Positions 32,844 through 56,969 of a DNA stretch of 64,000 nucleotides are shown here, piece after piece. Position numbers and translations under genes: made by a program. The notes under the pieces were generated by a model. That model searched no databases. It had not been told where the DNA came from and saw only the letters and a list, made by a program, of their open reading frames with translations. The stretch's first letter is position 1, and every line of letters begins with the position of its first letter. Source of the DNA: an uncultured Nitrospiraceae bacterium (lineage in GTDB: Bacteria > Nitrospirota > Thermodesulfovibrionia > Thermodesulfovibrionales > SM23-35); contig CAVSHB010000004.1 in the NCBI GenBank assembly GCA_963727775.1, forward strand, positions 64,001 through 128,000. Reading direction: 5' to 3'.

Positions 32844-32934
32844 ATTTAACGACACCCATGAGCAACCGGGCCACAGACATCTGCTCAAAACCAACCAGCT
32901 TTATTTCCGGTCTGCCTCGATGGGCTTGTTACCG
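32844..32934 (-). other. attC site (91 nt)
   Basis: R'' CGGTAAC, L'' CATCGAG, L' CTCATG, R' GTTAAAT. Confidence 0.75.
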
Positions 32935-32936
32935 TT

Positions 32937-33203
32937 TTATATTTTGTTATATTTCGGTTTTAAAACTTTTCGAAGATCTTGCTCAAGCGCCTTACGTTCT
33001 TGTTCATCCGAAATCGGTACGAAATTCCAGCTCGTAAATATTTTGTCAGAGTCTTTTCGCGTATGCTCGGCCACACGCAAAAAGCAATTCCAGCCCTGCC
33101 CTACATAAACCAGTTCGCTATTAAGGAACAAAAAGTACACGCCGGAGCAAGCACCAGAAACATGATGACTCGTTCTTTCAAGTTCTTCAAGATTTGGTTT
33201 CAT
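32937..33203 (-). CDS. Small GIY-YIG nuclease-like protein (cassette)
   Basis: SGVYFL..LVYVGQ..R..H..E..PKYN. Confidence 0.75.
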   Translation of the reverse strand: MKPNLEELERTSHHVSGACSGVYFLFLNSELVYVGQGWNCFLRVAEHTRKDSDKIFTSWNFVPISDEQERKALEQDLRKVLKPKYNKI

Positions 33204-33222
33204 ACAGCTTACTGAGTTAGCC

Positions 33223-33690
33223 TCAACTCTTTTTCCTGTAAATATAAGACCCAGTGAATTCTTTGGCAACAAAATTGCCAGTGAAGTCTATCTCGTCGTA
33301 TGGAGTTTTTGTCCCTTTTTGATTAATTAATTCGTATCCTTCGGCTAATGCATGTTCTATGAGAGCTTTTTCAATTATGCTTATACATTTATTTGAACTC
33401 TGCCCCGGCTTGCATATATATTCGCCGATGACAAGAACCTTTGTGCCATTTTGTGAGTTTTCAATTGCCTTCATCAAGTTTGTTGTATTAAATTGTGAAC
33501 GTATGCGATATGCAAGGTCTCCAGCTTTGCCAATGTAAAGCGGGGTCAGATTTTCACCATATAGCCGACAGAACATATAAATTCCTGGTACCCCTTCAAA
33601 TTTAGACAAGTCCCTTATGTTGTAAATTAGATTCTTCTTTGATCCGTCTTCGAGCGAAAGCGGTTTATGCCAAAACACAGAAAGGCTCAT
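33223..33690 (-). CDS. GIY-YIG-like protein (cassette)
   Basis: PGIYMF..PLYIGKA..R..EKALI..LIN. Confidence 0.7.
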   Translation of the reverse strand: MSLSVFWHKPLSLEDGSKKNLIYNIRDLSKFEGVPGIYMFCRLYGENLTPLYIGKAGDLAYRIRSQFNTTNLMKAIENSQNGTKVLVIGEYICKPGQSSNKCISIIEKALIEHALAEGYELINQKGTKTPYDEIDFTGNFVAKEFTGSYIYRKKS

Positions 33691-33733
33691 TGTTTTGCGC
33701 TCCTTTTAAGATTAATATTATTCATTTTTGTCG

Positions 33734-33782
33734 CGGTAACATCAAGTTAAGCAGGTGCCACCGCTTGAACGGCTGGGTGGAA
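33734..33782 (-). other. attC site (49 nt, degenerate R'')
   Basis: TTCCACC-5-GTTCAAGC-10-GCTTAAC-5-GTTACCG. Confidence 0.65.
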
Positions 33783-33825
33783 TTAGCCATCCTTGCCCAG
33801 TAAAGGGGGTCCACTCACCGTTTCC

Positions 33826-34771
33826 TTATTTTGACTCATTAGTTGCAGCTTTGATATGAACACGTAGTTGTTCGAGAAGAAATTCAACATTAAGGTTGCT
33901 ATCTAACTCTCTCCACTCGTCAATGAAGCTTCTTTCTGTTGCGATGGTAATCAGCCCCGCCCCTCTAATGAGCTCATAAAATGCGTTTGTATCTTCAGGT
34001 AGAACAGCTTTACATGTATGAAAATAGTCTAAATCGATATCTATGATATAAGGAACATTAAAAAAATTGTCTGTAAAGAAAGAAGGGTACATTTCCTTCA
34101 TTATAGACAGCTTTTTCATCAAAAGCGCTGATTCAATGGCTTGATTATAATGAGGGATCGTACAGTCATCATTATGAGATTGACGGGGACAACCTATATA
34201 ACACAAATTCTCTACTAAACATGGCGACATAATTTTTGCCGCATAATTACAATGCAACCCTATAATTCATGCCACTTCATGCGACAATTGTTATGACGGT
34301 ATGTTTAAATAGATTTCAGCGTCGGGGTATGTGAATGGCCTTTGAGGGCGCTCAGGGCGAGGGAGCATGCCAATGACGTTATCTCTGTATGGCTGCCTCT
34401 TCATAGGATGAAGGCTCATCGAACGCTGCATCATAGCTTATAATAAATGCCTTTGAAATAATGCCTGCTTTAATTGCGGCATCAATATGTTCGTCGTTTC
34501 TCAGACAAGCTACCGCCTTCTTGACCGAATTAATGTCAGAAAATTTAATGTCAGAGATTAGTTTTTGCGCTAAATCATCATTACACTGGAAGCTATTGGT
34601 GTCAAATGTTGCTGCTGAAAAAGCATTATGAGTATCAGTATGGTGGTCTAAGCTGAGTAGTATGGGTGGTGCATCTCGTTCCTGACGATACAATGCCCAA
34701 CTCGTCAGAACCATCTGATGCTTAGGGAAAATATCAATCTTCTTGTTATTGATAGTAATCTCTTGTCTCAT
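33826..34771 (-). pseudogene. UPF0489-like protein, split (cassette)
   Basis: LSLDHHTD and LRNDEHI in 34379..34771; IIDIDLDYF and TIATE in 33826..34257. Confidence 0.7.
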
Positions 34772-34781
34772 CTTTATTCAA

Positions 34782-34831
34782 AACCAACGACGAGTTGAGC
34801 CGCCATTGGCGGCTCGAACGACTCGTTATAA
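34782..34831 (-). other. attC site (50 nt)
   Basis: TTATAAC-5-GTTCGAGC-11-GCTCAAC-5-GTTGGTT. Confidence 0.8.
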
Positions 34832-34832
34832 C

Positions 34833-35696
34833 CTACTGCGGTAATTGCTTCTGAATGTTATCGACTAGAGTTTGAGCCTGCTTCGTTAGTTGTTTGAAAA
34901 AGGGTTCCATTTTCGCTTTTTGTTCGAAGCACCGGCAATATGCTTTAAAACCCTCATCTTCGTATCTATGCGTGTCGTCGATAGCTTTCTGATCTTTAAG
35001 TTTCGATGCTCGATAAGTGGCGAATGCAGCATCCGATTTCTTCTTGAATTTATCCCACACGTCTTTGCATTCCGCGATTTGATTAATGTTGCTTTGCACC
35101 TCGGCAGATACCATAAATACACGATCGTCATTTGAGAAAAAGACAAAAAGATGTTTTGGTAAGAATAGCCCGATATCCTGTGCCCATAATCCAAGGAATG
35201 TATAGGCAAACGATTTATTATTGGTAGTCCGTACCGGTACATCTGCAAAATGGGTAACAGCTACATCCCAATTAAAAACCAAGCTATAAAATTCTTCAGC
35301 TTTTGCAAGCTTGCCCAATTCTGTGGGCAGTTTTTTGTGCTGTTGCAAATAACTATTCAGCAAATCCGTGGTTGTCACGAATAATAGCTCGTGCTTGGAA
35401 TCGAACCGCAATCCATCGACTTGGCCAAAACCGCCATCCTGGTAAAGGGTTTCTAAATTAATCTTTCCTCGTTTTGGAAAATGTGCGACATCAACGGGGC
35501 CTATTATCAACTGAAGTTGCTTCTCTAATTTTGAGAGGGCTTTTTCATCTGAATTAGCCTCTGGGGCGCTCGCTGTGGAAAATTGATGGATAAATCCATC
35601 ACGTGTATCGAGATATTCATCTCGCGACGACGCGGCCTCGGACTGTCCGGTAATGCATAGCAACAATGAAATAATCGATATGAAGACTTTTATCAT
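34833..35696 (-). CDS. Secreted hypothetical protein (first cassette)
   Basis: 287-aa ORF with signal peptide, bounded by GTTATAC (35721) and attC. Confidence 0.8.
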   Translation of the reverse strand: MIKVFISIISLLLCITGQSEAASSRDEYLDTRDGFIHQFSTASAPEANSDEKALSKLEKQLQLIIGPVDVAHFPKRGKINLETLYQDGGFGQVDGLRFDSKHELLFVTTTDLLNSYLQQHKKLPTELGKLAKAEEFYSLVFNWDVAVTHFADVPVRTTNNKSFAYTFLGLWAQDIGLFLPKHLFVFFSNDDRVFMVSAEVQSNINQIAECKDVWDKFKKKSDAAFATYRASKLKDQKAIDDTHRYEDEGFKAYCRCFEQKAKMEPFFKQLTKQAQTLVDNIQKQLPQ

Positions 35697-35980
35697 GGAT
35701 CATGTCCCTCTTCGGTATAACCAGCCATTAGCTAGTTTATCGAGAATACTCTTTTTGTAATGTTATCTGTCCAGTTGCTGCGACTAATATCCGAAATCTC
35801 ATATTAGTCATCCGGATAATATCGGATTTGTAATGTTAGTCGTACAAAATCTGACTTTCTCATATAGTTTAATTCCGATAATAACTTACACTATTTTAAA
35901 TTTTATGAAAATAACATATTTCAGAAGAGGAAGTTAGTCGCGGGACACGTTTCGGATTAAAGTCGAGATTTCCTCCTCAA

Positions 35981-36076
35981 GGGGTGGCAACTTTGCTCCG
36001 GAACGGGCGGTCGGAACAAACGGAACAGCTGGCCGGAATGAATCAGAATCAAAGGCCGAAATGGTCCGGGAAATGA
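35981..36076 (-). mobile_element. IS21-like terminal repeat, right
   Basis: ggtggcaactttgctccggaa..cggaac..ccggaat..ggccgaaat repeats. Confidence 0.55.
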
Positions 36077-36090
36077 ACAAATCCCAAATT

Positions 36091-36492
36091 TTACAGCATC
36101 GCTATTCGTTTGTCTTTGTACGGCTGGGGCCATTGGTGGGTATCAATCAGCCATATAAGATGCTCAAGCAGGTTCGGCTGGTTGGTAATGTTCGGCTCCT
36201 CATCGAAAAGAACGCCCACGAGATACATATCTTTAAACTTTTTCTGCCAGTCGACTTTGCCTGATATTGTGTCCTCCCGCGTTTTTCCGGCCCTACCGAC
36301 AAATGAGACATTGATACTCACCATCCTGCCTCTTCCTATAGACCGGGATGAATATAGCCCTATCCCTGAAAATGATATATTAGCTATGGTTGCTTCAACA
36401 ACTTTTTTCTCTTTGAGAACCGTAACAGTTGCGCTGCCGAAAAACTGATACCTGTTCCATTTTCGGGCATCTTCAAAGCTTTTCTTTTTCAT
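36091..36492 (-). CDS. PilZ domain protein
   Basis: RKWNR (RxxxR) and NISFSG (N/DxSxxG). Confidence 0.8.
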   Translation of the reverse strand: MKKKSFEDARKWNRYQFFGSATVTVLKEKKVVEATIANISFSGIGLYSSRSIGRGRMVSINVSFVGRAGKTREDTISGKVDWQKKFKDMYLVGVLFDEEPNITNQPNLLEHLIWLIDTHQWPQPYKDKRIAML

Positions 36493-36498
36493 ATTTTC

Positions 36499-36621
36499 TC
36501 ATTCCTTTCCGATATCTTTTCTAAAACGTATGCCTTCAAAATGGATTTTCTCTATATTCCGGTAGGCGACATCCCTTGCAGCCGATAAAGTACTGCCTTT
36601 GCCGACTACATGCAGGACCCT
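36499..36621 (-). pseudogene. purD C-terminal remnant
   Basis: RVLHVVGKGSTLSAARDVAYRNIEKIHFEGIRFRKDIGKE*. Confidence 0.75.
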
Positions 36622-36782
36622 GCGCCGTCGGGTACCAGCCCCTTTTACACTGACCTGCCCCCCGTTATTGTACCACACTCAGAGTGGCACTTAGAAGGTA
36701 AATGGCTTACAAAGAATGAGACTTATTTGAAAAATGATATAATATGCAAGTTTTGAATTCTTAGGGAAAGGAAACCAAAAAA

Positions 36783-38057
36783 ATGCGCGTATTAATGGTT
36801 GGGCAAGGTGGGCGTGAACATGCCCTGTGTGTAAAGATAGCCAAGTCTCCTTTGTGTGAAGAACTCTTCTGCGCTCCCGGAAATGCTGGTATAAATGAAG
36901 TTGCTAAATGTATTCCTGTATCCTCTGAAAATACAGTAGGGCTGGTTGATTTTTGCAAACAGGCCACGATTGATTTTGTAGTTATTGGACCGGAAAATCC
37001 ATTAGTTGCAGGACTTGCTGACGTCCTTGAGAGCAATGGCATTCCGGTTTTTGGACCATCTAAAATGGCAGCGCAGCTCGAAGGCTCAAAGAGTTTTACA
37101 AAGGAGTTCTGTGTCGCATACAATATTCCAACAGCTGCTTTTGCCAGGTTTACAGGTGCCGCTGGTGCAAAATCTTACATTAGATCGCAGGGAACCCCGA
37201 TTGTCATTAAAGCCAATGGTTTGGCCGCAGGAAAAGGCGTAACCGTAGCTCAGAATTTTGAAGAGGCTTCAGCAGCCGTAGATGCCGCACTGATCGGTAA
37301 TAAGTTTGGGGAGGCGGGTCGGGAAATTGTAATTGAAGAATGTCTTACCGGAAAAGAATTTTCGTTTTTCGCTTTTGTAGACGGCTCAAGCGTTATGCCA
37401 CTTGCAACCGCCCAGGATTATAAACGTGTTGGTGACGGGGATTTGGGACCGAATACCGGTGGGATGGGGGCTTTGTCCCCTGCCTTAGGACTACCGGAAG
37501 GTATAGAGCAAGAGATGATGAAGACTGTAATCCTGCCTACTGTGGAAGGAATGAAAAAAATTGGCAGCCCTTTTAAAGGAATTTTGTATGCAGGAATGAT
37601 GCTTACCGAGGCCGGGCCCAAGCTGATTGAGTATAATGTGCGGTTTGGTGACCCGGAATGTCAGGCGCTTTTGATTCGCATGGATAACGATTTATTACCG
37701 ATTCTGATTGCTACTCATGAGGGCAAACTAGCAGACTTCGAACTTTCATGGGATCAAGATTTTTCTATATGTGTTGTGTTGGCTGCCGAAGGATATCCTG
37801 AAGCGCCCAAGAAAGGAAGTATTATATCTGGCCTTGCGGAAGCGGCTTCCAGTGACCCTGATGTGCAAATTTTACATGCTGCTACCAAATTTGACGGCGA
37901 CAATATAGTCGCTGATGGCGGTCGAGTATTAAATATTGTGGCACATGCCCCAACTATTGACCAGGCCCGCGCCAAAGCTTACGCAGTTGTCAAAAGAATA
38001 CATTGGCCGGAAGGGTTTTGTCGACGCGATATCGGAGCTAGTGTACTGTCCCACTAA
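36783..38057 (+). CDS. purD: Phosphoribosylamine-glycine ligase
   Basis: GGREHA, GLAAGKGV, GPNTGGMG, RFGDPE, GGRVL. Confidence 0.97.
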   Translation: MRVLMVGQGGREHALCVKIAKSPLCEELFCAPGNAGINEVAKCIPVSSENTVGLVDFCKQATIDFVVIGPENPLVAGLADVLESNGIPVFGPSKMAAQLEGSKSFTKEFCVAYNIPTAAFARFTGAAGAKSYIRSQGTPIVIKANGLAAGKGVTVAQNFEEASAAVDAALIGNKFGEAGREIVIEECLTGKEFSFFAFVDGSSVMPLATAQDYKRVGDGDLGPNTGGMGALSPALGLPEGIEQEMMKTVILPTVEGMKKIGSPFKGILYAGMMLTEAGPKLIEYNVRFGDPECQALLIRMDNDLLPILIATHEGKLADFELSWDQDFSICVVLAAEGYPEAPKKGSIISGLAEAASSDPDVQILHAATKFDGDNIVADGGRVLNIVAHAPTIDQARAKAYAVVKRIHWPEGFCRRDIGASVLSH

Positions 38058-39177
38058 AAGCTGGACAATGATTAGTTGTCATGGTAAGCTATATGGCATG
38101 TGGGAAAAAGCAGAAGTTCTGGAGATGACAAAAGAGCAGCGCAGGACATTGGAAGCTTGGAAACGGGCTAAGACCAGCCCTCAGCGAGCAGTACTGCGAG
38201 CGAGTATTTGTCTTTTGGCGGCGGATGGCTTGTCGAACAACGCTATCGCGGCCCAACTGTCCACCTCCCGCCCGACAGTAATCCAATGGCGCAAACGTTT
38301 CGAAGAGCATGGACCGATGGGATTGGCCGAGGACGCACCCCATGGCCCGAGTCCACAGGCTCTTCCGCCGGACCGGGTGAAGGCCATTGTCGAAGCGACT
38401 CTCCACACGACACCTCGCGATGCCACGCAGTGGTCGGTGCGTTCGATGGCAAGGGCTCAGGGAGTCGGCAAGTCCACGGTGCAACGTATATGGGACGCGC
38501 ACGGTCTTCAGCCTCATCGCGTTGAGACATTCAAGTTATCCAAGGACAAGCGGTTTGTTGAAAAACTGACGGACGTGGTGGGAGTGTACTTGAATCCGCC
38601 GGACAAGGCGGTGGTGCTGTGTGTTGACGAGAAGAGCCAAGTTCAAGCGTTGGATCGGACACAACCCGGCTTGCCGATGAAGAAAGGGCGCTGCCGAACC
38701 ATGACCCATGACTATAAGCGCAATGGCACTACGTGTCTGTTCGCGGCGTTGAATGTGCTGGAGGGAAAAGTTATTGGCTCCTGTTATCCGAGGCATCGCA
38801 ACATCGAATTTCGGAAATTCCTGCGACAGATCGACGCCACCGTACCCTCGGAATTGGGCGTCCATATGATTCTGGATAATTATGGTACGCACAACCATCC
38901 CAAGGTTAAAGCATGGCTGAAAAAACATCCCCGATTTCACCTTCATTTCACGCCGACCAGTTCCTCATGGTTGAATCTGGTGGAGAGATGGTTCGGAGAG
39001 ATCACACGGAAACGCATTCGCTGTGGAGTTTTTCGCAGTGTTTCGGAACTTGTTGCGGCAATAGAAGACTTCATCCAGATCAACAACGAGAGTCCCAAGC
39101 CGTTTGTCTGGACGAAAAAGGTCGATGCCATCTTGGAAAAGGTCGTTCATTGTAAAGCCGTTAGTGGGACACTACAC
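38041..39177 (+). mobile_element. IS630-family element (transposase ~38098..39180)
   Basis: 17-bp TIRs GTGTACTGTCCCACTAA / TTAGTGGGACACTACAC, TA flanks; VDEKSQ, LDNY, SWLNLVE. Confidence 0.95.
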
Positions 39178-39219
39178 TAGTTGAAAGCGTGCGTAAAAGG
39201 CAAATTATGTTTACATTAA

Positions 39220-39343
39220 CGGATGGTATGCCCGAAAGTCCGAAAAGTGCCGTCAGATGACAGAGCATTCCCCAGACACGCTCCTTTTTTTCGATGGGAT
39301 TATTGACAATGGAATCTTCAGTGATCTGATTCAGCTCTTGCAT
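39220..39343 (-). pseudogene. DUF4870-like N-terminal fragment
   Basis: KKERVWGMLCHLTAL..GIP, then diverges. Confidence 0.5.
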
Positions 39344-39424
39344 AACGGATGTATTGTATCAAAACAGAAGTTAAAAAGATAACGTACCTCGTATTGCTTT
39401 TCAGGAATTAATGCATGTTAAAAA

Positions 39425-40177
39425 TCAAATCTTTCCCACTACTGCAAGGTAAATTGCAAATTCGTTTTTACCGTCAACATCCAAAAGCTTGTCCATCAAC
39501 TCCTGGTGATAAGCGGCAACAGCGCATGTCCCCCCGCCAATTGCTGCACTGGCTAAATACAGATTCTGGCACACATGTCCAGCATCGAGCGCAATAACCT
39601 TATGGGCCGCAATATGGTACCGCCATTCCATTCGATAAGGTATGGTCGTCCATATAAATATTGCAGGGGCTTTGCCGATAAAAGATTGATAAAACGTCGC
39701 CGTTACGATGTCCTCTGATAAGTTTTCATTTATTGATACGACGAGAAGCTGATGTTCAATCGGCAGATAACGGTAAATCCCCATCGCTGCTCCTGTAACA
39801 TTCAAAAGACATATATAAGTCTCAAGCGCATGGCGACAACCGGCTGAAGGTACGGTCCGAAAAGCTGTGGCTTCATCTTCCCGCTTTCTTATGCCCTGAG
39901 TCGCCCAAAGCAAGAATGATAATTCTTCCAGGGACAACGGCTCTTCCTTAAAATGTCTATGACTTTCTCTATTTTGTATTGCGGAAATAAGATCTATATT
40001 AGCAATGCTATGCAAGTTATCTTTTGTCACCAGTTCAATCCGGTTACCTTTCACGTCATAAGGCTTTTCAATCGGAGGAGGTGATAGCCCTTTTCTTTGA
40101 TCTGTCTGACTGAAATCAATCGTCTGACGTACTGTGTCTTTTAAAAAAGAACGGTATTGCTCCAATAAATTATCCAT
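39425..40177 (-). CDS. SagB/ThcOx-family nitroreductase
   Basis: LSFLLWATQG, RTVPSAG, LDAGHVCQNLYL. Confidence 0.9.
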   Translation of the reverse strand: MDNLLEQYRSFLKDTVRQTIDFSQTDQRKGLSPPPIEKPYDVKGNRIELVTKDNLHSIANIDLISAIQNRESHRHFKEEPLSLEELSFLLWATQGIRKREDEATAFRTVPSAGCRHALETYICLLNVTGAAMGIYRYLPIEHQLLVVSINENLSEDIVTATFYQSFIGKAPAIFIWTTIPYRMEWRYHIAAHKVIALDAGHVCQNLYLASAAIGGGTCAVAAYHQELMDKLLDVDGKNEFAIYLAVVGKI

Positions 40178-40199
40178 AACACTTCTCCTCTTTCTTGAC

Positions 40200-40269
40200 G
40201 TTCGGTGAAGCCATGCTGTGCCGGAGTTGCACAAACGTCTTTGCCCGAAAGGACAGGGAGCTTACCCAA
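40200..40269 (-). pseudogene. Truncated HicA toxin
   Basis: TTG start overlapping hicB stop: MGKLPVLSGKDVC..QHGF, then truncated. Confidence 0.55.
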
Positions 40270-40483
40270 CAGCAACCTCGACTTGTGTAACAAATATCTC
40301 GCCATGAAGCCGCTGTTTTATCTCTTCAGGAGAGGCGGCTTCAAAAAATAATTCTAATGCCTCCTTGAGGTTATCACGTGCTTGCTCGATGGTATCCCCC
40401 TGGCTTGCTATATAGAGCTCTGGACATAGAGAAACATATCCATCATTTTCTTTTTCTATGATTGCCGTCAGTTTTTGTGTCAT
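40262..40483 (-). CDS. HicB-family antitoxin
   Basis: YVSLCPEL..ASQGDTIEQA..NLKEALELF. Confidence 0.88.
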   Translation of the reverse strand: MTQKLTAIIEKENDGYVSLCPELYIASQGDTIEQARDNLKEALELFFEAASPEEIKQRLHGEIFVTQVEVAVG

Positions 40484-40555
40484 ATCGCCTCTTTTTGCTT
40501 CTATTATACCTTTAAGTCCTAAGTTACTGAAGTTGTAAATATTCGCGGGACCGGA

Positions 40556-40981
40556 TTATTCCGGAGAAAGAATCTTAAAACCTTCGGTAGATGCGGCATC
40601 ATTCAGTTTATCATCAAATGATGAAAATAACAGCGAAACATTGTCCTGATTTGCCTTCAGCAGCGTTGCAGCAGAGAGATGAACAGCATCGAAACCTCGC
40701 AAACCATATAGGTTCACCAGCCGCCCGGCCTCCAGTTCATCAAAGTCTAATGCCGCGAACCGTACCCATTCACTGGAAAACTTAGCGATCAGGGAATCGT
40801 ATTGCTTTTCAGTTAAATCACCTTGTCTGAAGCGTCTACCTATTGCCGACATCGTTTCAGGATACGCTATGCGGCAGGTGGCAACTATTTCAGCTTCTTG
40901 AACCCATTTCTTAACTAAAGCCGTGTGGGCTTCCTGAACGTATAACTTCACAAAACTACTAGTATCAAAATACACAATCAT
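40556..40981 (-). CDS. PIN/VapC toxin
   Basis: YFDTSSFVKLY, LRGFDAVHL, FDDKL. Confidence 0.9.
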   Translation of the reverse strand: MIVYFDTSSFVKLYVQEAHTALVKKWVQEAEIVATCRIAYPETMSAIGRRFRQGDLTEKQYDSLIAKFSSEWVRFAALDFDELEAGRLVNLYGLRGFDAVHLSAATLLKANQDNVSLLFSSFDDKLNDAASTEGFKILSPE

Positions 40982-41238
40982 CGACGTTCCTCAAGAACAG
41001 TTTTAGAAAGAGACTTGCCTTTAATTTTGATATTATCGAGCCCCTCGGGCTTTCCTCCTGACCACTTAGCCCTGCCTGAATCAATAAGTGACTTCAGAGC
41101 TTTCCTCTCTCTGGATATTGGGACAAACAAGGCAACTTCCTTGCCGTGTTCAGTTATGACGACTTCTTCGCCTTGGCGCACTCTATCAACATAACTGCTG
41201 AGTTTCGTCTTCAATTCTTTTATTCCCACAGAAATCAT
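40978..41238 (-). CDS. Phd/YefM antitoxin
   Basis: VGIKELKTKLS..GEEVVITEHGKEVA. Confidence 0.9.
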   Translation of the reverse strand: MISVGIKELKTKLSSYVDRVRQGEEVVITEHGKEVALFVPISRERKALKSLIDSGRAKWSGGKPEGLDNIKIKGKSLSKTVLEERR

Positions 41239-41312
41239 ATTAACCTCCTTAGTACATATTATGGTTACAATATACAATAAAACTGGTTACATTAGCAATA
41301 GGAATGGCTACT

Positions 41313-41375
41313 TATCAACACGCTAAACTACCGGCTTGCTCTTATTGCCGGTCAGGTTTGACGCAGGTATTCGAC
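41313..41375 (-). other. attC site (degenerate)
   Basis: R'' GTCGAAT..AAACCTGACCGGC/GCCGGTAGTTT..R' GTTGATA. Confidence 0.6.
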
Positions 41376-41383
41376 ATTCTTTT

Positions 41384-43256
41384 TCATTGCTTATTTGCTA
41401 TTTCAGATTTGTTGCTGAAAAGGGAATTCTGGAGTTCCTGTATTGAATATTGCTGTTTCGCAGCAAAGTGAAAAACAGGGATATCAGCAGCCGCAAGAAC
41501 TTTGTCTATGAATTGGTCGCGGTATTGTCTTTTGGATTGATTATGGCTCTTGCGTCTAATTCTATTACAAATTTCACGCCGAGAGACGTGGAGTCACATG
41601 CAACAAAATCAAGGTGCTTGCTTTGAATCCGATTGAACGCTTTCTGCCATGTGCTCTTATTATTTCCTTTTTTTACTTTGACCACATCGGCAAGACGAAC
41701 TTTACCCATAATTCGCACTTTTCCGTCAACGGCTTGCTCAAGCACACCGAAAAATGACCGCTCCGCTGGCGTAAAAAGTGTCTGCTCTTTTTCGTATGGA
41801 TAATCTTCTGTATCGCCGCTTTTTCCTCTGAGAAATGTCTTTAATACTGTTGCGGCAATTCCAGGTAGTGTCAACTATTTTGTGTAAATTTGATAAAGGG
41901 GCAAATTGGGTCGCACCTTTCCTATTGGATTTGATCTCCAACTCAACTCCATCTTTAACGATATAAAAGCAAGAAGCCTATAACAGGCATCCTCTCCGGC
42001 TACTATCTCCATAGTCTTCGTTCTTCTCTTGAATTCCTTGTTCAGGCGCTCAATAATGTTCGACGTCCGTAATGATATCCATTCTTCTTCCGGGAACTTG
42101 AAGAATGTCAAACAGGCGTCTATTGACTGGCCTAATGATTTCACGGCTGAGGGGAGTTCTTTGCTCCACTTCGTGTAAAAGCTCCTGTAGAATTCATCTG
42201 CCTTTCCTTTTGAAGAGGCATAGAATATAGACCTCAGATCATCTGCTACTTCCTTTTTCAATTTATGAGGTACCTTCGCCAGTACATTACGGGCCACATG
42301 CACCTGGCACCTCTGCACTTTTGCATTGGGAAACTCTTCTTCAAATACTTTCTCCAGCCCAGAAAGCCCATCCATGATTCCCAGCCTCACCGATGACCCG
42401 TCGAGCCCTCTGCTTTTTAAATCCTTAAAAAACTCCCTCCAGTTCGTAGCCGATTCCTTGTCGCCGCTCTGCAGACCGAGCACTAATTTCGTTCCATCCC
42501 CTGTTACCCCTATTGCTGCAAGTACGGGGACATTCTCCACACTATACTTCAATCTCATCTTGAAGATCACGCCGTCTACAAAGATGTATTTTATTGGCTC
42601 CTGGGATAAATCACGGTTGCGCCAATTCTCTACCCCTGCCGTCAATTCCTTGCTCGCCTTGCTCACTTCTTCATGAGATATCTCACGCCCTATAAGTCTC
42701 TTGCTTAACATCGAGAGCGTCCGCGTGCTTATCCCCGTCAGATACATCATCGACAAATCCTCCGCGATCCTGGTTTCATATCGCTTCCCACGAGGCAATA
42801 CCTGTGTCTGATATTCGCCCTTCCGATCTCTAGGTACCTTTACTGCTACTTCTCCAATCCCCTTAATACAGAAGTCCCGGGGATAGCTCCCGTTGCGATG
42901 GTTGGCCTCCCCCTTGCCACGCTCATATCTTCCACGCCCTAAAACATGCGTCAGTTCTGCCTTCATCAGGTTCGTCAAATAGTTGCCTACGTCCTTTTGC
43001 ACATTCAGCGTGGCCATCTCAAATATCCTCGACGGATTCTCCTGCAATTCTTTGATTAAATTTACGACTTCTGGTACGCTAATCTTAATTTCCATGGGTG
43101 CTCCTCCTTTTGATTTTTGTTATTGGTCTAACAAAATATTTTATAGGAGGTGCGCCCTTATTTTTCCCCTCGTTTGAATTTCACACAGTCAAGTTTACAC
43201 TGTCCAATTCCAAAGACGATCAGAATGGCAACCAATGGCCACAGACTTTGAATCAT
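41384..43256 (-). pseudogene. DUF2726 cassette gene, interrupted by IS256 and frameshifted
   Basis: N-terminus MIQSLWPLVAILIVFGI (43256) continues AATVL..LFTPAERSF..KVRLAD..KHLDFV..IELD; frameshift near 41552. Confidence 0.85.
41864..43204 (-). mobile_element. IS256-family element (transposase 41875..43095)
   Basis: RNG..VPRDR, FVDG, DGLSG, QRCQVH, IERLNKE; 8-bp TSD CAATTCCA at 41856-41863 and 43205-43212. Confidence 0.95.
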
Positions 43257-43277: not shown

Positions 43278-43334
43278 GTCGAACATGCGGCTCACCTGGA
43301 GCCAGCTTTTTCGGCGATCAGGTGCAGCCGATTG
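43278..43334 (-). other. attC site split by IS110 (remainder 44983-44988)
   Basis: Reconstituted: ATTTAAC-5-GCTGCACC-24-GGTGAGC-5-GTTCGAC. Confidence 0.8.
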
Positions 43335-44982
43335 ATACTCATTAAGGCCCCCCTGAACCATACCCGAATCAGGTATGATTCAGGAACCGAAATCATTTAC
43401 CAAAAGGAGGCCTCAAATGAGATTTTACATCAAGCAGCACAAATTTTACTGCGGTATCGATCTTCACGCAAGGACTATGTACCTTTGCATCCTCAACCAG
43501 GAAGGAAAGATCGTCCTGCATAGGGACATCAAGACAGACCCCGACATCTTTCTCAAGACGATCGCGCCATATCGTGAGGACATCGTAGTTGCCGTTGAGT
43601 GCATCTTCACCTGGTACTGGCTCGCCGATCTCTGCTGTAAAGAGAATATTTCCTTCGTCCTTGGCCATGCTCTCTATATGAAAGCCATCCATGGCGGCAA
43701 AGCCAAGAACGACAAAATAGACGCATATAAGATAGCAGCCCTGCTTCGGGGCGGCATGATGCCCATGGCCTATGTTTATCCTTCCGATATGCGCTCCACC
43801 AGAGATCTGCTCAGGCGGCGCACTCACCTCGCAAGAAAAAGGGCTGAACTCATTGCCCATATCCAAAACACCAATCACCAGTATAACTTCGCCGATATGG
43901 GAAGGATCGCAAGGAAATGCGACAGAATCAAAGTAGGCGTTGCCGACCGCTTCACCGATCCCAGCGTACAAAAAAGCATAGAGCTCGATATCACCCTTAT
44001 CGAGCATTACGATAAACTCCTAAACCATCTCGAACATGAACTCTCTCTTATTGCGAAAGTGCATGATGCCGATTCCTATTTCCGCCTCCGCTCTATTCCA
44101 GGCGTCGGAAGGATCCTCGGCCTCACCATCCTCTATGAGATACATGATATCAACCGCTTCCCTCGCGTACAGGATTTTGTCTCATACTGCAGACTGGTGA
44201 AATCCGCCAAGGAGTCGGCTGGGAAAATAATCGGGGCATCCGGCAAGAAGATCGGCAATGCCCATCTGAAATGGGCCTTTTCCGAAGTTGCTGTGCTTTT
44301 CCTCAGGAGAAACCCAGAAGCCGTAAAATACCGCGCAAAGCTGGAGCGAAAGCACGGCAAGGCAAAGTCTCTGACCATCCTTGCTCATAAGCTTGCAAGG
44401 GCTGTCTATAATATCCTCAAGAAAAAGGAGGTGTTTAATCCTAAAGTATTCTTTGCGAAATAAAGCTGGGACCGGGTGAGCCTGTTCGTCTAACTGGCGC
44501 CATTAGGGTGAAGTCCGATAGATGCTCGTAAACATCATATGTTTGCAGCTTCGACTGCCCTTCGATCATCCTGGAATATTATGCCCGGCGCAAATACGCT
44601 TTGATTAGGACATCCGGTCCCTCATAACATATAAAGATTGTTAAGGTTCTGTCCCTTACCCGAGCCTGATACTAACTGGATGAGGCCACTGACCTGAACC
44701 AGACCTTTGAATAGGACGGTACAAGGGTACTAAATTGTTTCTAGGTCGTGGAGAACAAGGGCGATTGCTCTCTCCACTGTCGCCGGGGATAGAGATTGTG
44801 AAAACAGTTCTCTTTCTCATGGCTATTGAACCTCGATAAGTGTTTGGTGCAGACATTGATCTAACGCCGCATTTGAAACCAAGTCAGAGCTGGCGATGGT
44901 CTTTTAAAAAAAAGAAATAGAATTTTATTTTATTTCCGATCAGGATCGTTTTTTCTCTTGACAGGGCAGGGCCTTATAAGTG
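43335..44982 (+). mobile_element. IS110-family element (recombinase 43417..44463)
   Basis: GIDLH, AVE, KNDKID (DEDD), SIPGVG, ESAG; TG core at both junctions; subterminal TAAGGCCC/GGGCCTTA. Confidence 0.92.
44468..44727 (+). ncRNA. Candidate bridge/seek RNA of IS110
   Basis: Two stem-closed loops, each GAGCC-TG..-TAACTGG ... CTTTGAWTAGGAC. Confidence 0.55.
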
Positions 44983-45570
44983 TTAAATGGTCTGTTCCAT
45001 CTTCTCTTTGGGTCTCTCGTCTACGTACGCATGGTAATTCTGTGAATCGGGACCCCAGTCGAAGAAAACCCCGACATCCTTATTCCTCATGGCAGTCGCA
45101 TGCTCGTCACTCAAGGACAAGTTTATGATCGAAAGGAGAAGCGGAGATCGTCTGCTTACCAAGGAAGCATAAACCTCGATAGTATAGCCGCCCGAAAGAA
45201 AATCGTAAGTAGTTCCATCTTTCGGTGTTAAGAAATGATGGTTACAGACTAGGCCGTCAATCCCGACAGTAATTCCCGAGCCACGGGCAAGAAACGTGTC
45301 TCCGTAAACCCACAGGTTGAACGTCTGCAAGGTCTCTCCTCGCTTTACTTTGACAAACATGCTCTCCACTATCTGATTCCTTCTTGACGTACTATAGAGA
45401 AGGGTTCGCAAAAAGACCTTCGACATTCCTTCGGGGTCTCGCCCGAAGAAGATCATCGTGGGTTGCGTCATCTTTATTGTGCCCTTTCTGAGAAGAGTAA
45501 GCCACGCAGTAAGCCCTGCGACAAACAGAGAGAATATGGCGATTACAATTGCAGCAATCTGGAGAACCAT
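44983..45570 (-). CDS. Hypothetical membrane-anchored protein (first cassette of array 2)
   Basis: 195-aa ORF between GTTAAAT (45602) and R'' ATTTAAC. Confidence 0.8.
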   Translation of the reverse strand: MVLQIAAIVIAIFSLFVAGLTAWLTLLRKGTIKMTQPTMIFFGRDPEGMSKVFLRTLLYSTSRRNQIVESMFVKVKRGETLQTFNLWVYGDTFLARGSGITVGIDGLVCNHHFLTPKDGTTYDFLSGGYTIEVYASLVSRRSPLLLSIINLSLSDEHATAMRNKDVGVFFDWGPDSQNYHAYVDERPKEKMEQTI

Positions 45571-56300: not shown

Positions 56301-56969
56301 GTTGGAGAGTAGACCAGCGGAACTTCCCCGCCAGCCCCTCGCAGAACCGGACGTGAGCCTCTCGACTCATACGGCTCCCATTATTCTGTCGCTAACCTTA
56401 GCGGCTTTGTTTTATTCGATAAATCCTCCCATCTCTGGTTGTCAGTCAAATAAAACTGAATAACTCAACCCCTTCGCTCCATCCCCATTACAGGGACCTC
56501 TTCGCTACTACGAGTTGCCCCGCCCCTGTTCTCCGCATCAGTACTCTCATCCTTGGGGGTCTGCCCCTTGGATTTCTCCCTTTACATCGGAGCGACAGGT
56601 TCCCACAGTTCCACACAAAAGCCTGAATCAGACTCGCGCCACCTATATGCCGGACACCATCCATCCAGTAAACAGGTTCCCGATGGATTTATCCCAAGAT
56701 AAGTACAAGACCCTGGTTTTGATGTCATCCCCGTGCTTTCGACACGTCATCGATGGTTTACTTTCATTCGCCTTTCTGATTCACACATGACGCATTATAT
56801 TGCGCCTTTTCCCATGACGCTCAGTACCTTGGCTCTTTACCAAAGCACCCCATGGCTGTTTAAAGCCTGTCCCTGTAGACCGGCTCTGGAGGGCCTTCCT
56901 CCATCTCTTGTGCAGCTTATGCACAATTTGGTTCTTACATGAGAACCTTCTTGTGCGCCTGCGGCGCAC
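56301..56969 (-). ncRNA. ORF-less group II intron
   Basis: 5' GTGCG at 56969; domain V GAGCCGTATGAGTCGAGAGGCTCACGTCCGGTTC; domain VI; 3' end ..CCAAC at 56301. Confidence 0.88.

Follow-up and report, generated by a model that had tools for sequence, protein, structure and literature searches.

An ISGsu4-lineage insertion sequence in an integron attC site, with a predicted three-loop bridge RNA

The interrupted attC site and the inserted element

On the minus strand of the 64,000-nt window (the whole stretch of DNA analysed here), which is the top strand of the site, an integron attC is split by an IS110-family element (Table 1). Excising the element in silico rebuilds a 63-nt attC, as the earlier note had claimed; all seven L-box pairs form in it (7/7, with an extra base in L''). 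The rebuilt site shows R''/R' and L''/L' boxes, that extra L'' base, fixed spacers and a gene end upstream, and only 22 of 3000 random TG|TT sites pass the same test, which places this attC beyond chance. The names and consensus by which the boxes at 43278-43334 and 44983-44988 are labelled are those that we take to define attC sites. The insertion point is G|TT of the R'' box, a position shared by two of the three copies of the element in the genome, which are 99.9% alike and differ in their flanks when compared with each other. The second copy (G000:C4:11448-13340, minus strand) lies inside an attC of another cluster and is trailed by a 250-bp tandem repeat of its own right end that starts within the donor guide; the third occupies a non-attC site and carries an IS630.

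The surroundings have the appearance of a cassette array. A second attC lies in the window on the minus strand at 32844-32934 (near 32930), and between 33000 and 41900 there follow small genes on that same strand, including a PIN/Phd toxin-antitoxin pair (40556-41277), together with an IS630 (37936-39180). The next cassette gene, of the DUF2726 type (41506-43256, minus strand), starts at 43256 and is itself interrupted by an IS256-type element, whose transposase lies at 41875-43095 and which appears to have a short target repeat. No integrase gene was found within the 64-kb window, and the region 32844-41900 is likely an integrase-less cassette cluster. The sole IntI-like gene of the genome lies in pieces on another contig, beside another attC cluster. 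At G000:C1:920500-929000 (L195), at least five attC sites adjoin a broken IntI-like gene that holds a short inserted gene.

The element is real and intact, an insertion sequence that belongs to the IS110 family and, within it, to the ISGsu4 lineage. Its recombinase combines a DEDD RuvC-like domain with a Tnp domain bearing the catalytic serine (residues D15, E61, D99, D102 and S267), and S267, which aligns with the serine of the IS621 ESG motif, is invariant in 64/64 sequences. If the core G is assigned to the left end, the ends become 43334-44981 and assume the 7+3 pattern of IS1111 elements; the 10-bp sub-terminal repeats, which change together on the left and the right among relatives, then have an IS1111-type layout, yet are shorter than the usual 11-13 bp. 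Downstream of the gene stretches a non-coding region of 519 nt, which in relatives mostly measures 440-680 nt. Joining the two ends gives TTGACA-N18-GATACT, just as had been noted earlier, and the spacing of this predicted circle-junction promoter is kept at 17-18 nt in 77/77 relatives (18 nt in 70, 17 nt in seven). A promoter scan across the linear element gave no signal exceeding chance. None of the sequencing runs contained half of the element's words, no circle joint appeared among the contigs compared, and two metatranscriptomes yielded contigs of relatives only and no RNA from the present element. L092 (G045:C188) and run X19 show forms shortened by an internal deletion, in which the left end and some of the RNA region are retained. 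One contig from an RNA run, a single instance and of a relative's sequence, connects 43385 with 44645, where the unit of loop 2 and the donor loop begins.

Table 1. Positions in the window of the split attC, the element and the predicted parts of its RNA
Feature	Position	Strand	Details
Larger part of split attC	43278..43334	-	R' 43278-43284, L' 43290-43296, L'' 43321-43328, spacer 43329-43333
IS110-family element	43335..44982	+	1,648 bp; three genomic copies with different flanks
Left sub-terminal inverted repeat	43341..43350	+	8/10 identical to right repeat
DEDD recombinase	43417..44463	+	348 aa, frame intact; PF01548+PF02371; NF033542 over cut-off
Target loop 1 (predicted)	44468..44620	+	right-half guide 44488-44494, left-half guide 44597-44603; stem and guide covariation
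Outer helix (predicted)	44646..44890	+	44646-44651 with 44885-44890; 92.6% of cells paired, 3/6 pairs changed on both sides
Target-type loop 2 (predicted)	44653..44727	+	guides 44670-44676 and 44703-44709; stem covariation
Donor loop (predicted)	44728..44849	+	left-end guide 44733-44741, right-end guide 44836-44842; covariation, sister pairs
-35 hexamer of predicted circle-junction promoter	44958..44963	+	spacing kept among relatives
Right sub-terminal inverted repeat	44969..44978	-	co-varies with left repeat among relatives
Remainder of attC R'' box	44983..44988	-	contains stop codon of upstream cassette gene
Upstream cassette gene	44983..45570	-	195 aa, no Pfam family; separated from its own attC by the insertion

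Target sites of the relatives, loop 1 and the donor loop

The comparison draws on a scan of one genome per species, in which 554 stretches encode a relative and from which 79 loci (55-87% identity) were returned, and on further genome searches; together these give 128 distinct insertions from 178 hits, 76 of them with both ends. Before counting, we excluded L051 and L069, whose right flanks are internal sequence, and the misparsed guides of L063 and L079; the guides of 13 loci were read manually, and L023 and L038 were corrected. Among 69 rebuilt empty sites 31 pass the strict attC test, as against the 22/3000 given above, 4/647 and 36/6900 in three controls; many of the 38/69 that fail it do so solely because no far arm was found. 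The signature of the L'' box (T at -12, A at -9) is found in 81/99 left flanks versus 329/4251 background sites. The insertion point is fixed, with a T after the core G in 66/69 sites and a second T in 63/69. A TG core had been reported at both junctions and is indeed present there; across the relatives invariance is limited to the G.

Loop 1, the first of three loops that we recognize in the right end, carries two guides. Complementary to the right half of the site, its 5' guide reproduces the attC consensus RYYYAAC, and its 3' guide copies the left half of the site up to the core; the 5' target guides stop directly 5' of TGG, and the 3' guides terminate in TTG. Both guides covary with the sites across relatives (z 6.9 and 5.3 by permutation), and when each member of a sister pair is scored on its own as opposed to the swapped site, 22 comparisons speak for the own site, with three ties and five against (p 0.0008). 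The closing stem of this loop shows changes on both sides in 14/16 pairs. Moreover, there are cases of natural retargeting: in L023 and in L036/L040/L121, altered right-half guides match altered sites, and in two outgroups (~32% identity) unrelated targets can be read off, over 8 and 9 bases, at this same position of the guide. The guide anchors were located with patterns containing AAC and TG, so that the conserved guide core is partly built in; the same guide motifs appear in an alignment made without those patterns. Taken together, these covariations make it likely that loop 1 is the loop that chooses the insertion site.

The earlier note had sought the loop-1 guide in the segment right after GAGCC, on the ground that it begins TGTT like the target. 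This is true in 8/67 relatives, and the segment varies freely; likewise, the match that it saw to the opposite attC arm has no counterpart among the relatives, in which neither loop covaries with that arm (p 0.24 and 0.64, 22 sites). The comparison of homologues that it proposed does find loop 1 covarying with the target, through the neighbouring guides and not through that segment. Its wider interpretation survives in the IS110/IS1111-type recombinase and in a right-end guide RNA predicted to be aimed at the GTT core of attC, and fails in the guide register and the roles given to the loops.

The fit of the present copy to its loop-1 guides is modest (9.5 of 14), and 3,814 of the 30,793 TG|TT sites in the genome fit them equally well. 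Since so many sites fit, and since the conserved letters of the targets extend beyond the guide span, loop 1 is insufficient to account for the attC preference. The guide span is only ~11 bases, and the attC hairpin therefore probably adds specificity. It is likely that the recombinase reads this hairpin, for which ISPpu10, as presented in the accessible part of bioRxiv 2026.03.19.712850, offers a precedent; the alternative is that harmless insertions are the ones retained.

The donor loop tracks the element instead of the site. Its 3' guide equals the last seven bases of the right end in 64/81 elements and changes together with them (z 5.0). For the 5' guide there is covariation with the left end (z 4.7), and the sister pairs of this loop give 16 for, 15 ties and one against. 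It is thus likely to read the element's own ends. This third loop was missed in the two-loop RNA that had been proposed before. The 5' guide is mispaired at position +2 in 74/74 elements and fits the left end of this element at 5/9 positions. Within the donor unit two complementary motifs of four bases, at 44738-44741 and 44875-44878, are near-invariant; when the donor guide is set against the GAAAC downstream, the four pairs in the centre hardly vary and are thus uninformative, and the neighbours pair in 25/36 and 8/36. Pairing of the two motifs with each other may explain the fixed mismatch.

As to the fold, an outer helix surrounds loop 2, the donor loop and a 3' hairpin, with loop 1 lying outside. 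The structure of loop 2, donor loop and outer helix has 92.0% of its cells paired, in comparison to 86.7% in shuffled and 27-51% in slid controls, the slid control being one over which it is favoured, as it was drawn from the window's own sequence; 16/29 of its pairs vary on both sides. Folding distinguishes the strands (z -3.2 for the plus strand, which folds well, and -0.3 for the minus strand, which does not), and no Rfam family matched the RNA region. Both GAGCC..TAACTGG..CTTTGA..AGGAC modules described earlier lie at their claimed places and have covarying closing stems. The 9-mer at 44636 is also present; its alignment columns are not conserved among relatives, and it was ruled out as a conserved feature. 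In L051 and L059 several hundred bases are inserted between loops 1 and 2, and their adjacency is unnecessary.

The extra target-type loop

Loop 2 repeats the layout of a target loop across the clade. Its closing stem changes on both sides in 6/11 pairs, both target-type loops could be parsed in 78 of the 92 ends that are complete, and by eye both motifs can be seen in most of the remaining 14. A loop-2 model matches 40/43 clade sources, 39 of them at E < 0.05, three sources having been in its training set. The model has no match in the two outgroups or in ISPa21; the outgroup misses do not prove that loop 2 is absent from them, as it may have diverged and the model finds loop 1 in no locus either. 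On balance, the comparisons point to loop 2 as likely a conserved duplicate that binds the recombinase and reads the generic attC core, acting as a helper and not as a chooser. One element pair speaks to its contact with DNA: L144/L146 have a CG core, and in each of their three loops the 3' guide likewise ends in CG, a change from TG that represents a single event and points to pairing of loop 2 with DNA. These two elements also have a much shorter loop 1.

It could be argued that both target loops choose sites, loop 2 being an active second guide that widens the attC range or a spare kept for new targets. Loop 2 does retain a target-like guide with a GTTAG consensus, and it shifted along with the core in L144/L146 and, in the L036 clade, along with the class of site. 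Further, an unpaired permutation is significant for it (8.93 vs 8.46, p 0.0002; z 2.8-3.5 for the 3' guide), a signal that may stem from kinship. Against this, the sister pairs, with 11 for, eight ties and 11 against, reveal no tracking of sites by loop 2; when the better-fitting loop is chosen for each site it is loop 1 in 48/61 and loop 2 in 6/61; position +5 of the loop-2 guide agrees with the site in 8% of 61 elements; and a score taking the best of the two loops gains nothing over loop 1 (p 0.94). In two multi-copy genomes, with four and five copies, the right flanks agree by eye with loop 1 or with neither loop. The best-of-two score and the sister pairs speak against loop 2 as an added site chooser; some role in site choice is possible, and the reading with two choosing loops seems to us rather doubtful. 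No perfect loop-2 target was found in the genome, even within one mismatch.

A second alternative makes loop 2 a structural part of the donor unit, serving folding, stability or processing, with its guide-like letters kept for protein contacts. This accords with its position within the helix that closes the donor loop and with its failure to track sites, and donor guides of IS1111 elements are said in the accessible part of PMC11208160 to occur in multi-loop structures. However, its 3' guide went from TG to CG along with the core in L144/L146, albeit as a single event, and its model is without a match in the two outgroups; we hold this alternative to be quite unlikely.

The two-loop bridge RNA of the earlier note, in which the segments directly after GAGCC would read the target in loop 1 and the circle junction in loop 2, fares far worse. 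The loop-2 hexamer does equal the core plus the left end here and in 12/67 relatives, and this is the commonest single variant; 55/67 differ, despite an end that is near-constant (the same in 54/67). Nor is loop 2 of the donor type that had been supposed: its guides covary with neither element end (z -0.5 and 0.1), on which account it was rejected as the donor loop, whereas the third loop does covary with them. In addition, this reading would have the guide begin with the core, in a register that differs from the one fitting the outgroups, and we regard it as hardly credible.

As for where loop 2 came from, it is possible that it arose by self-insertion, given that the second genomic copy and L069 bear tandem partial repeats starting at target-like sites in the RNA region. 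We found neither a duplicated target loop nor attC targeting by this lineage described in the literature that we searched, including the accessible parts of PMC13604230 and of the preprints bioRxiv 2025.05.14.653916, 2026.10.21.760802 and 2026.08.31.748434; figures and preprint supplements may already show the form.

Relation to known systems and proposed mechanism

In the accessible transposase list of PMC11187229, ISGsu4 and ISMahy12 (ISfinder) are the only entries with the diagnostic words of this protein. By eye they clearly belong to its lineage, a likeness that rests on the transposase protein, and in the accessible supplement of PMC11208160 they cluster with ISGsu5, ISShfr7 and ISShwo5. 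Our search for literature on the two retrieved one passing mention and no dedicated study.

With IS621 and ISCro4/IS622 the element shares the DEDD plus serine site and, as predicted from its sequence, separate target and donor loops with two guides each and a circle-junction promoter (as far as PMC11208160 and PMC11208158 are accessible); as modelled here, it would differ from them by an RNA in the right end that has three loops, not two, by the opposite order of its guides and by long sub-terminal repeats, and its recombinase is only weakly similar to that of IS621 (E 5e-5). Group IIC-attC introns are likewise RNA-guided and enter attC on its bottom strand, close to that same end, according to the accessible part of PMC3001079, but they are retrohoming introns with unrelated chemistry.

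The closest comparison is with the IS1111-attC group (ISKpn4, ISPst6, ISPa21, ISPa25), which likewise targets attC in a single orientation, the reverse of that of the cassette genes (PMC11187229 and PMC3001079, accessible parts), and has its guide RNA downstream of the gene with the top-strand match preceding the bottom-strand match (PMC11187229, same limits), an order also found here. On the other hand, the IS1111 motif GL-P----S/TG is absent, this recombinase having RLVK---ESxG, and in quick trees with long branches it does not group with IS4321 or ISPa21. These were a 14-row tree under LG+G4, used for the AU test, and a 33-row tree that gave long-branch warnings. The copy of ISPa21 compared, located in In416 (accessible part of PMC6739498), inserts by eye, and judging from that one copy, at the edge of L'', ~6 bases deeper into the site, as opposed to G|TT. 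The element thus behaves like an IS1111-attC member and has IS1111-type ends, but stands outside that group by protein clade and insertion point. That it is a plain member is scarcely tenable: the same attC orientation, right-end non-coding region, sub-terminal repeats and guide order would fit, whereas the IS110 gene found where ISPa21 sits in In416 has 19% identity to this recombinase (E 0.045), a single clade of the ISPa21 gene with this clade is rejected (p-AU 1e-8, 14-row quick tree), ISGsu4 clusters apart from ISKpn4, ISPa21, ISPst6 and ISPa25 in the accessible supplement of PMC11208160, the insertion point is another, and the loop-2 model has no counterpart in ISPa21.

We propose that an intact ISGsu4-lineage insertion sequence occupies G|TT of this attC and that its right end encodes a predicted three-loop bridge RNA which likely steers the recombinase there, a reading, drawn from sequence comparison, to which we assign a probability of about 80%. 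Briefly, the mechanism might run as follows. The element would excise in circular form, and its joined ends would supply a promoter for both the gene and the RNA. Loop 1 might then pair with both strands of the site, by its 5' guide with the right half and by its 3' guide with the left half, and the donor loop with the joined element ends, upon which serine 267 would carry out strand exchange at the shared G. Loop 2 might act as a helper, for instance where the inserted element meets its flanks while the circle is being formed. The insertion spares the stop codon of the cassette gene but disrupts the R-box pairing, and with that pairing broken the cassette would be locked in place.

Going further, we advance a tentative suggestion, namely that the RNA of the ISGsu4 lineage is a natural multi-guide bridge RNA with divided labour, in which loop 1 might come free as a seek RNA of its own and select the attC, and loop 2 together with the donor loop, under their common helix, might form a separate unit for excision or second strand transfer, or a second programmable guide. 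A bolder proposal, that the two target loops pair with two attC sites and excise cassettes without the integron integrase, we consider very improbable, since IS621 is unable to join target to target (PMC11208158, PMC13626964, in their accessible parts).

RNA-guided insertion into attC is already known; the notable parts here are a separate lineage using another base and an extra target loop throughout the clade. A separate recombinase lineage spread across many phyla would have reached attC independently, pointing to convergence on integron sites, and would add a route by which cassettes become fixed. The extra loop also bears on a dispute, visible in the accessible parts of PMC11187229, bioRxiv 2025.10.25.684509 and PMC13626964, over whether RNAs with the target loop only or full bridge RNAs are the active form and over how excision is driven: in this lineage the two RNA forms seem to be encoded next to each other, and each can be deleted separately. 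A scaffold with two target loops might, moreover, be useful for multiplexed bridge editing.

Elsewhere in the window, at 56304-56902 on the minus strand, there are two Rfam matches to group II intron domains.
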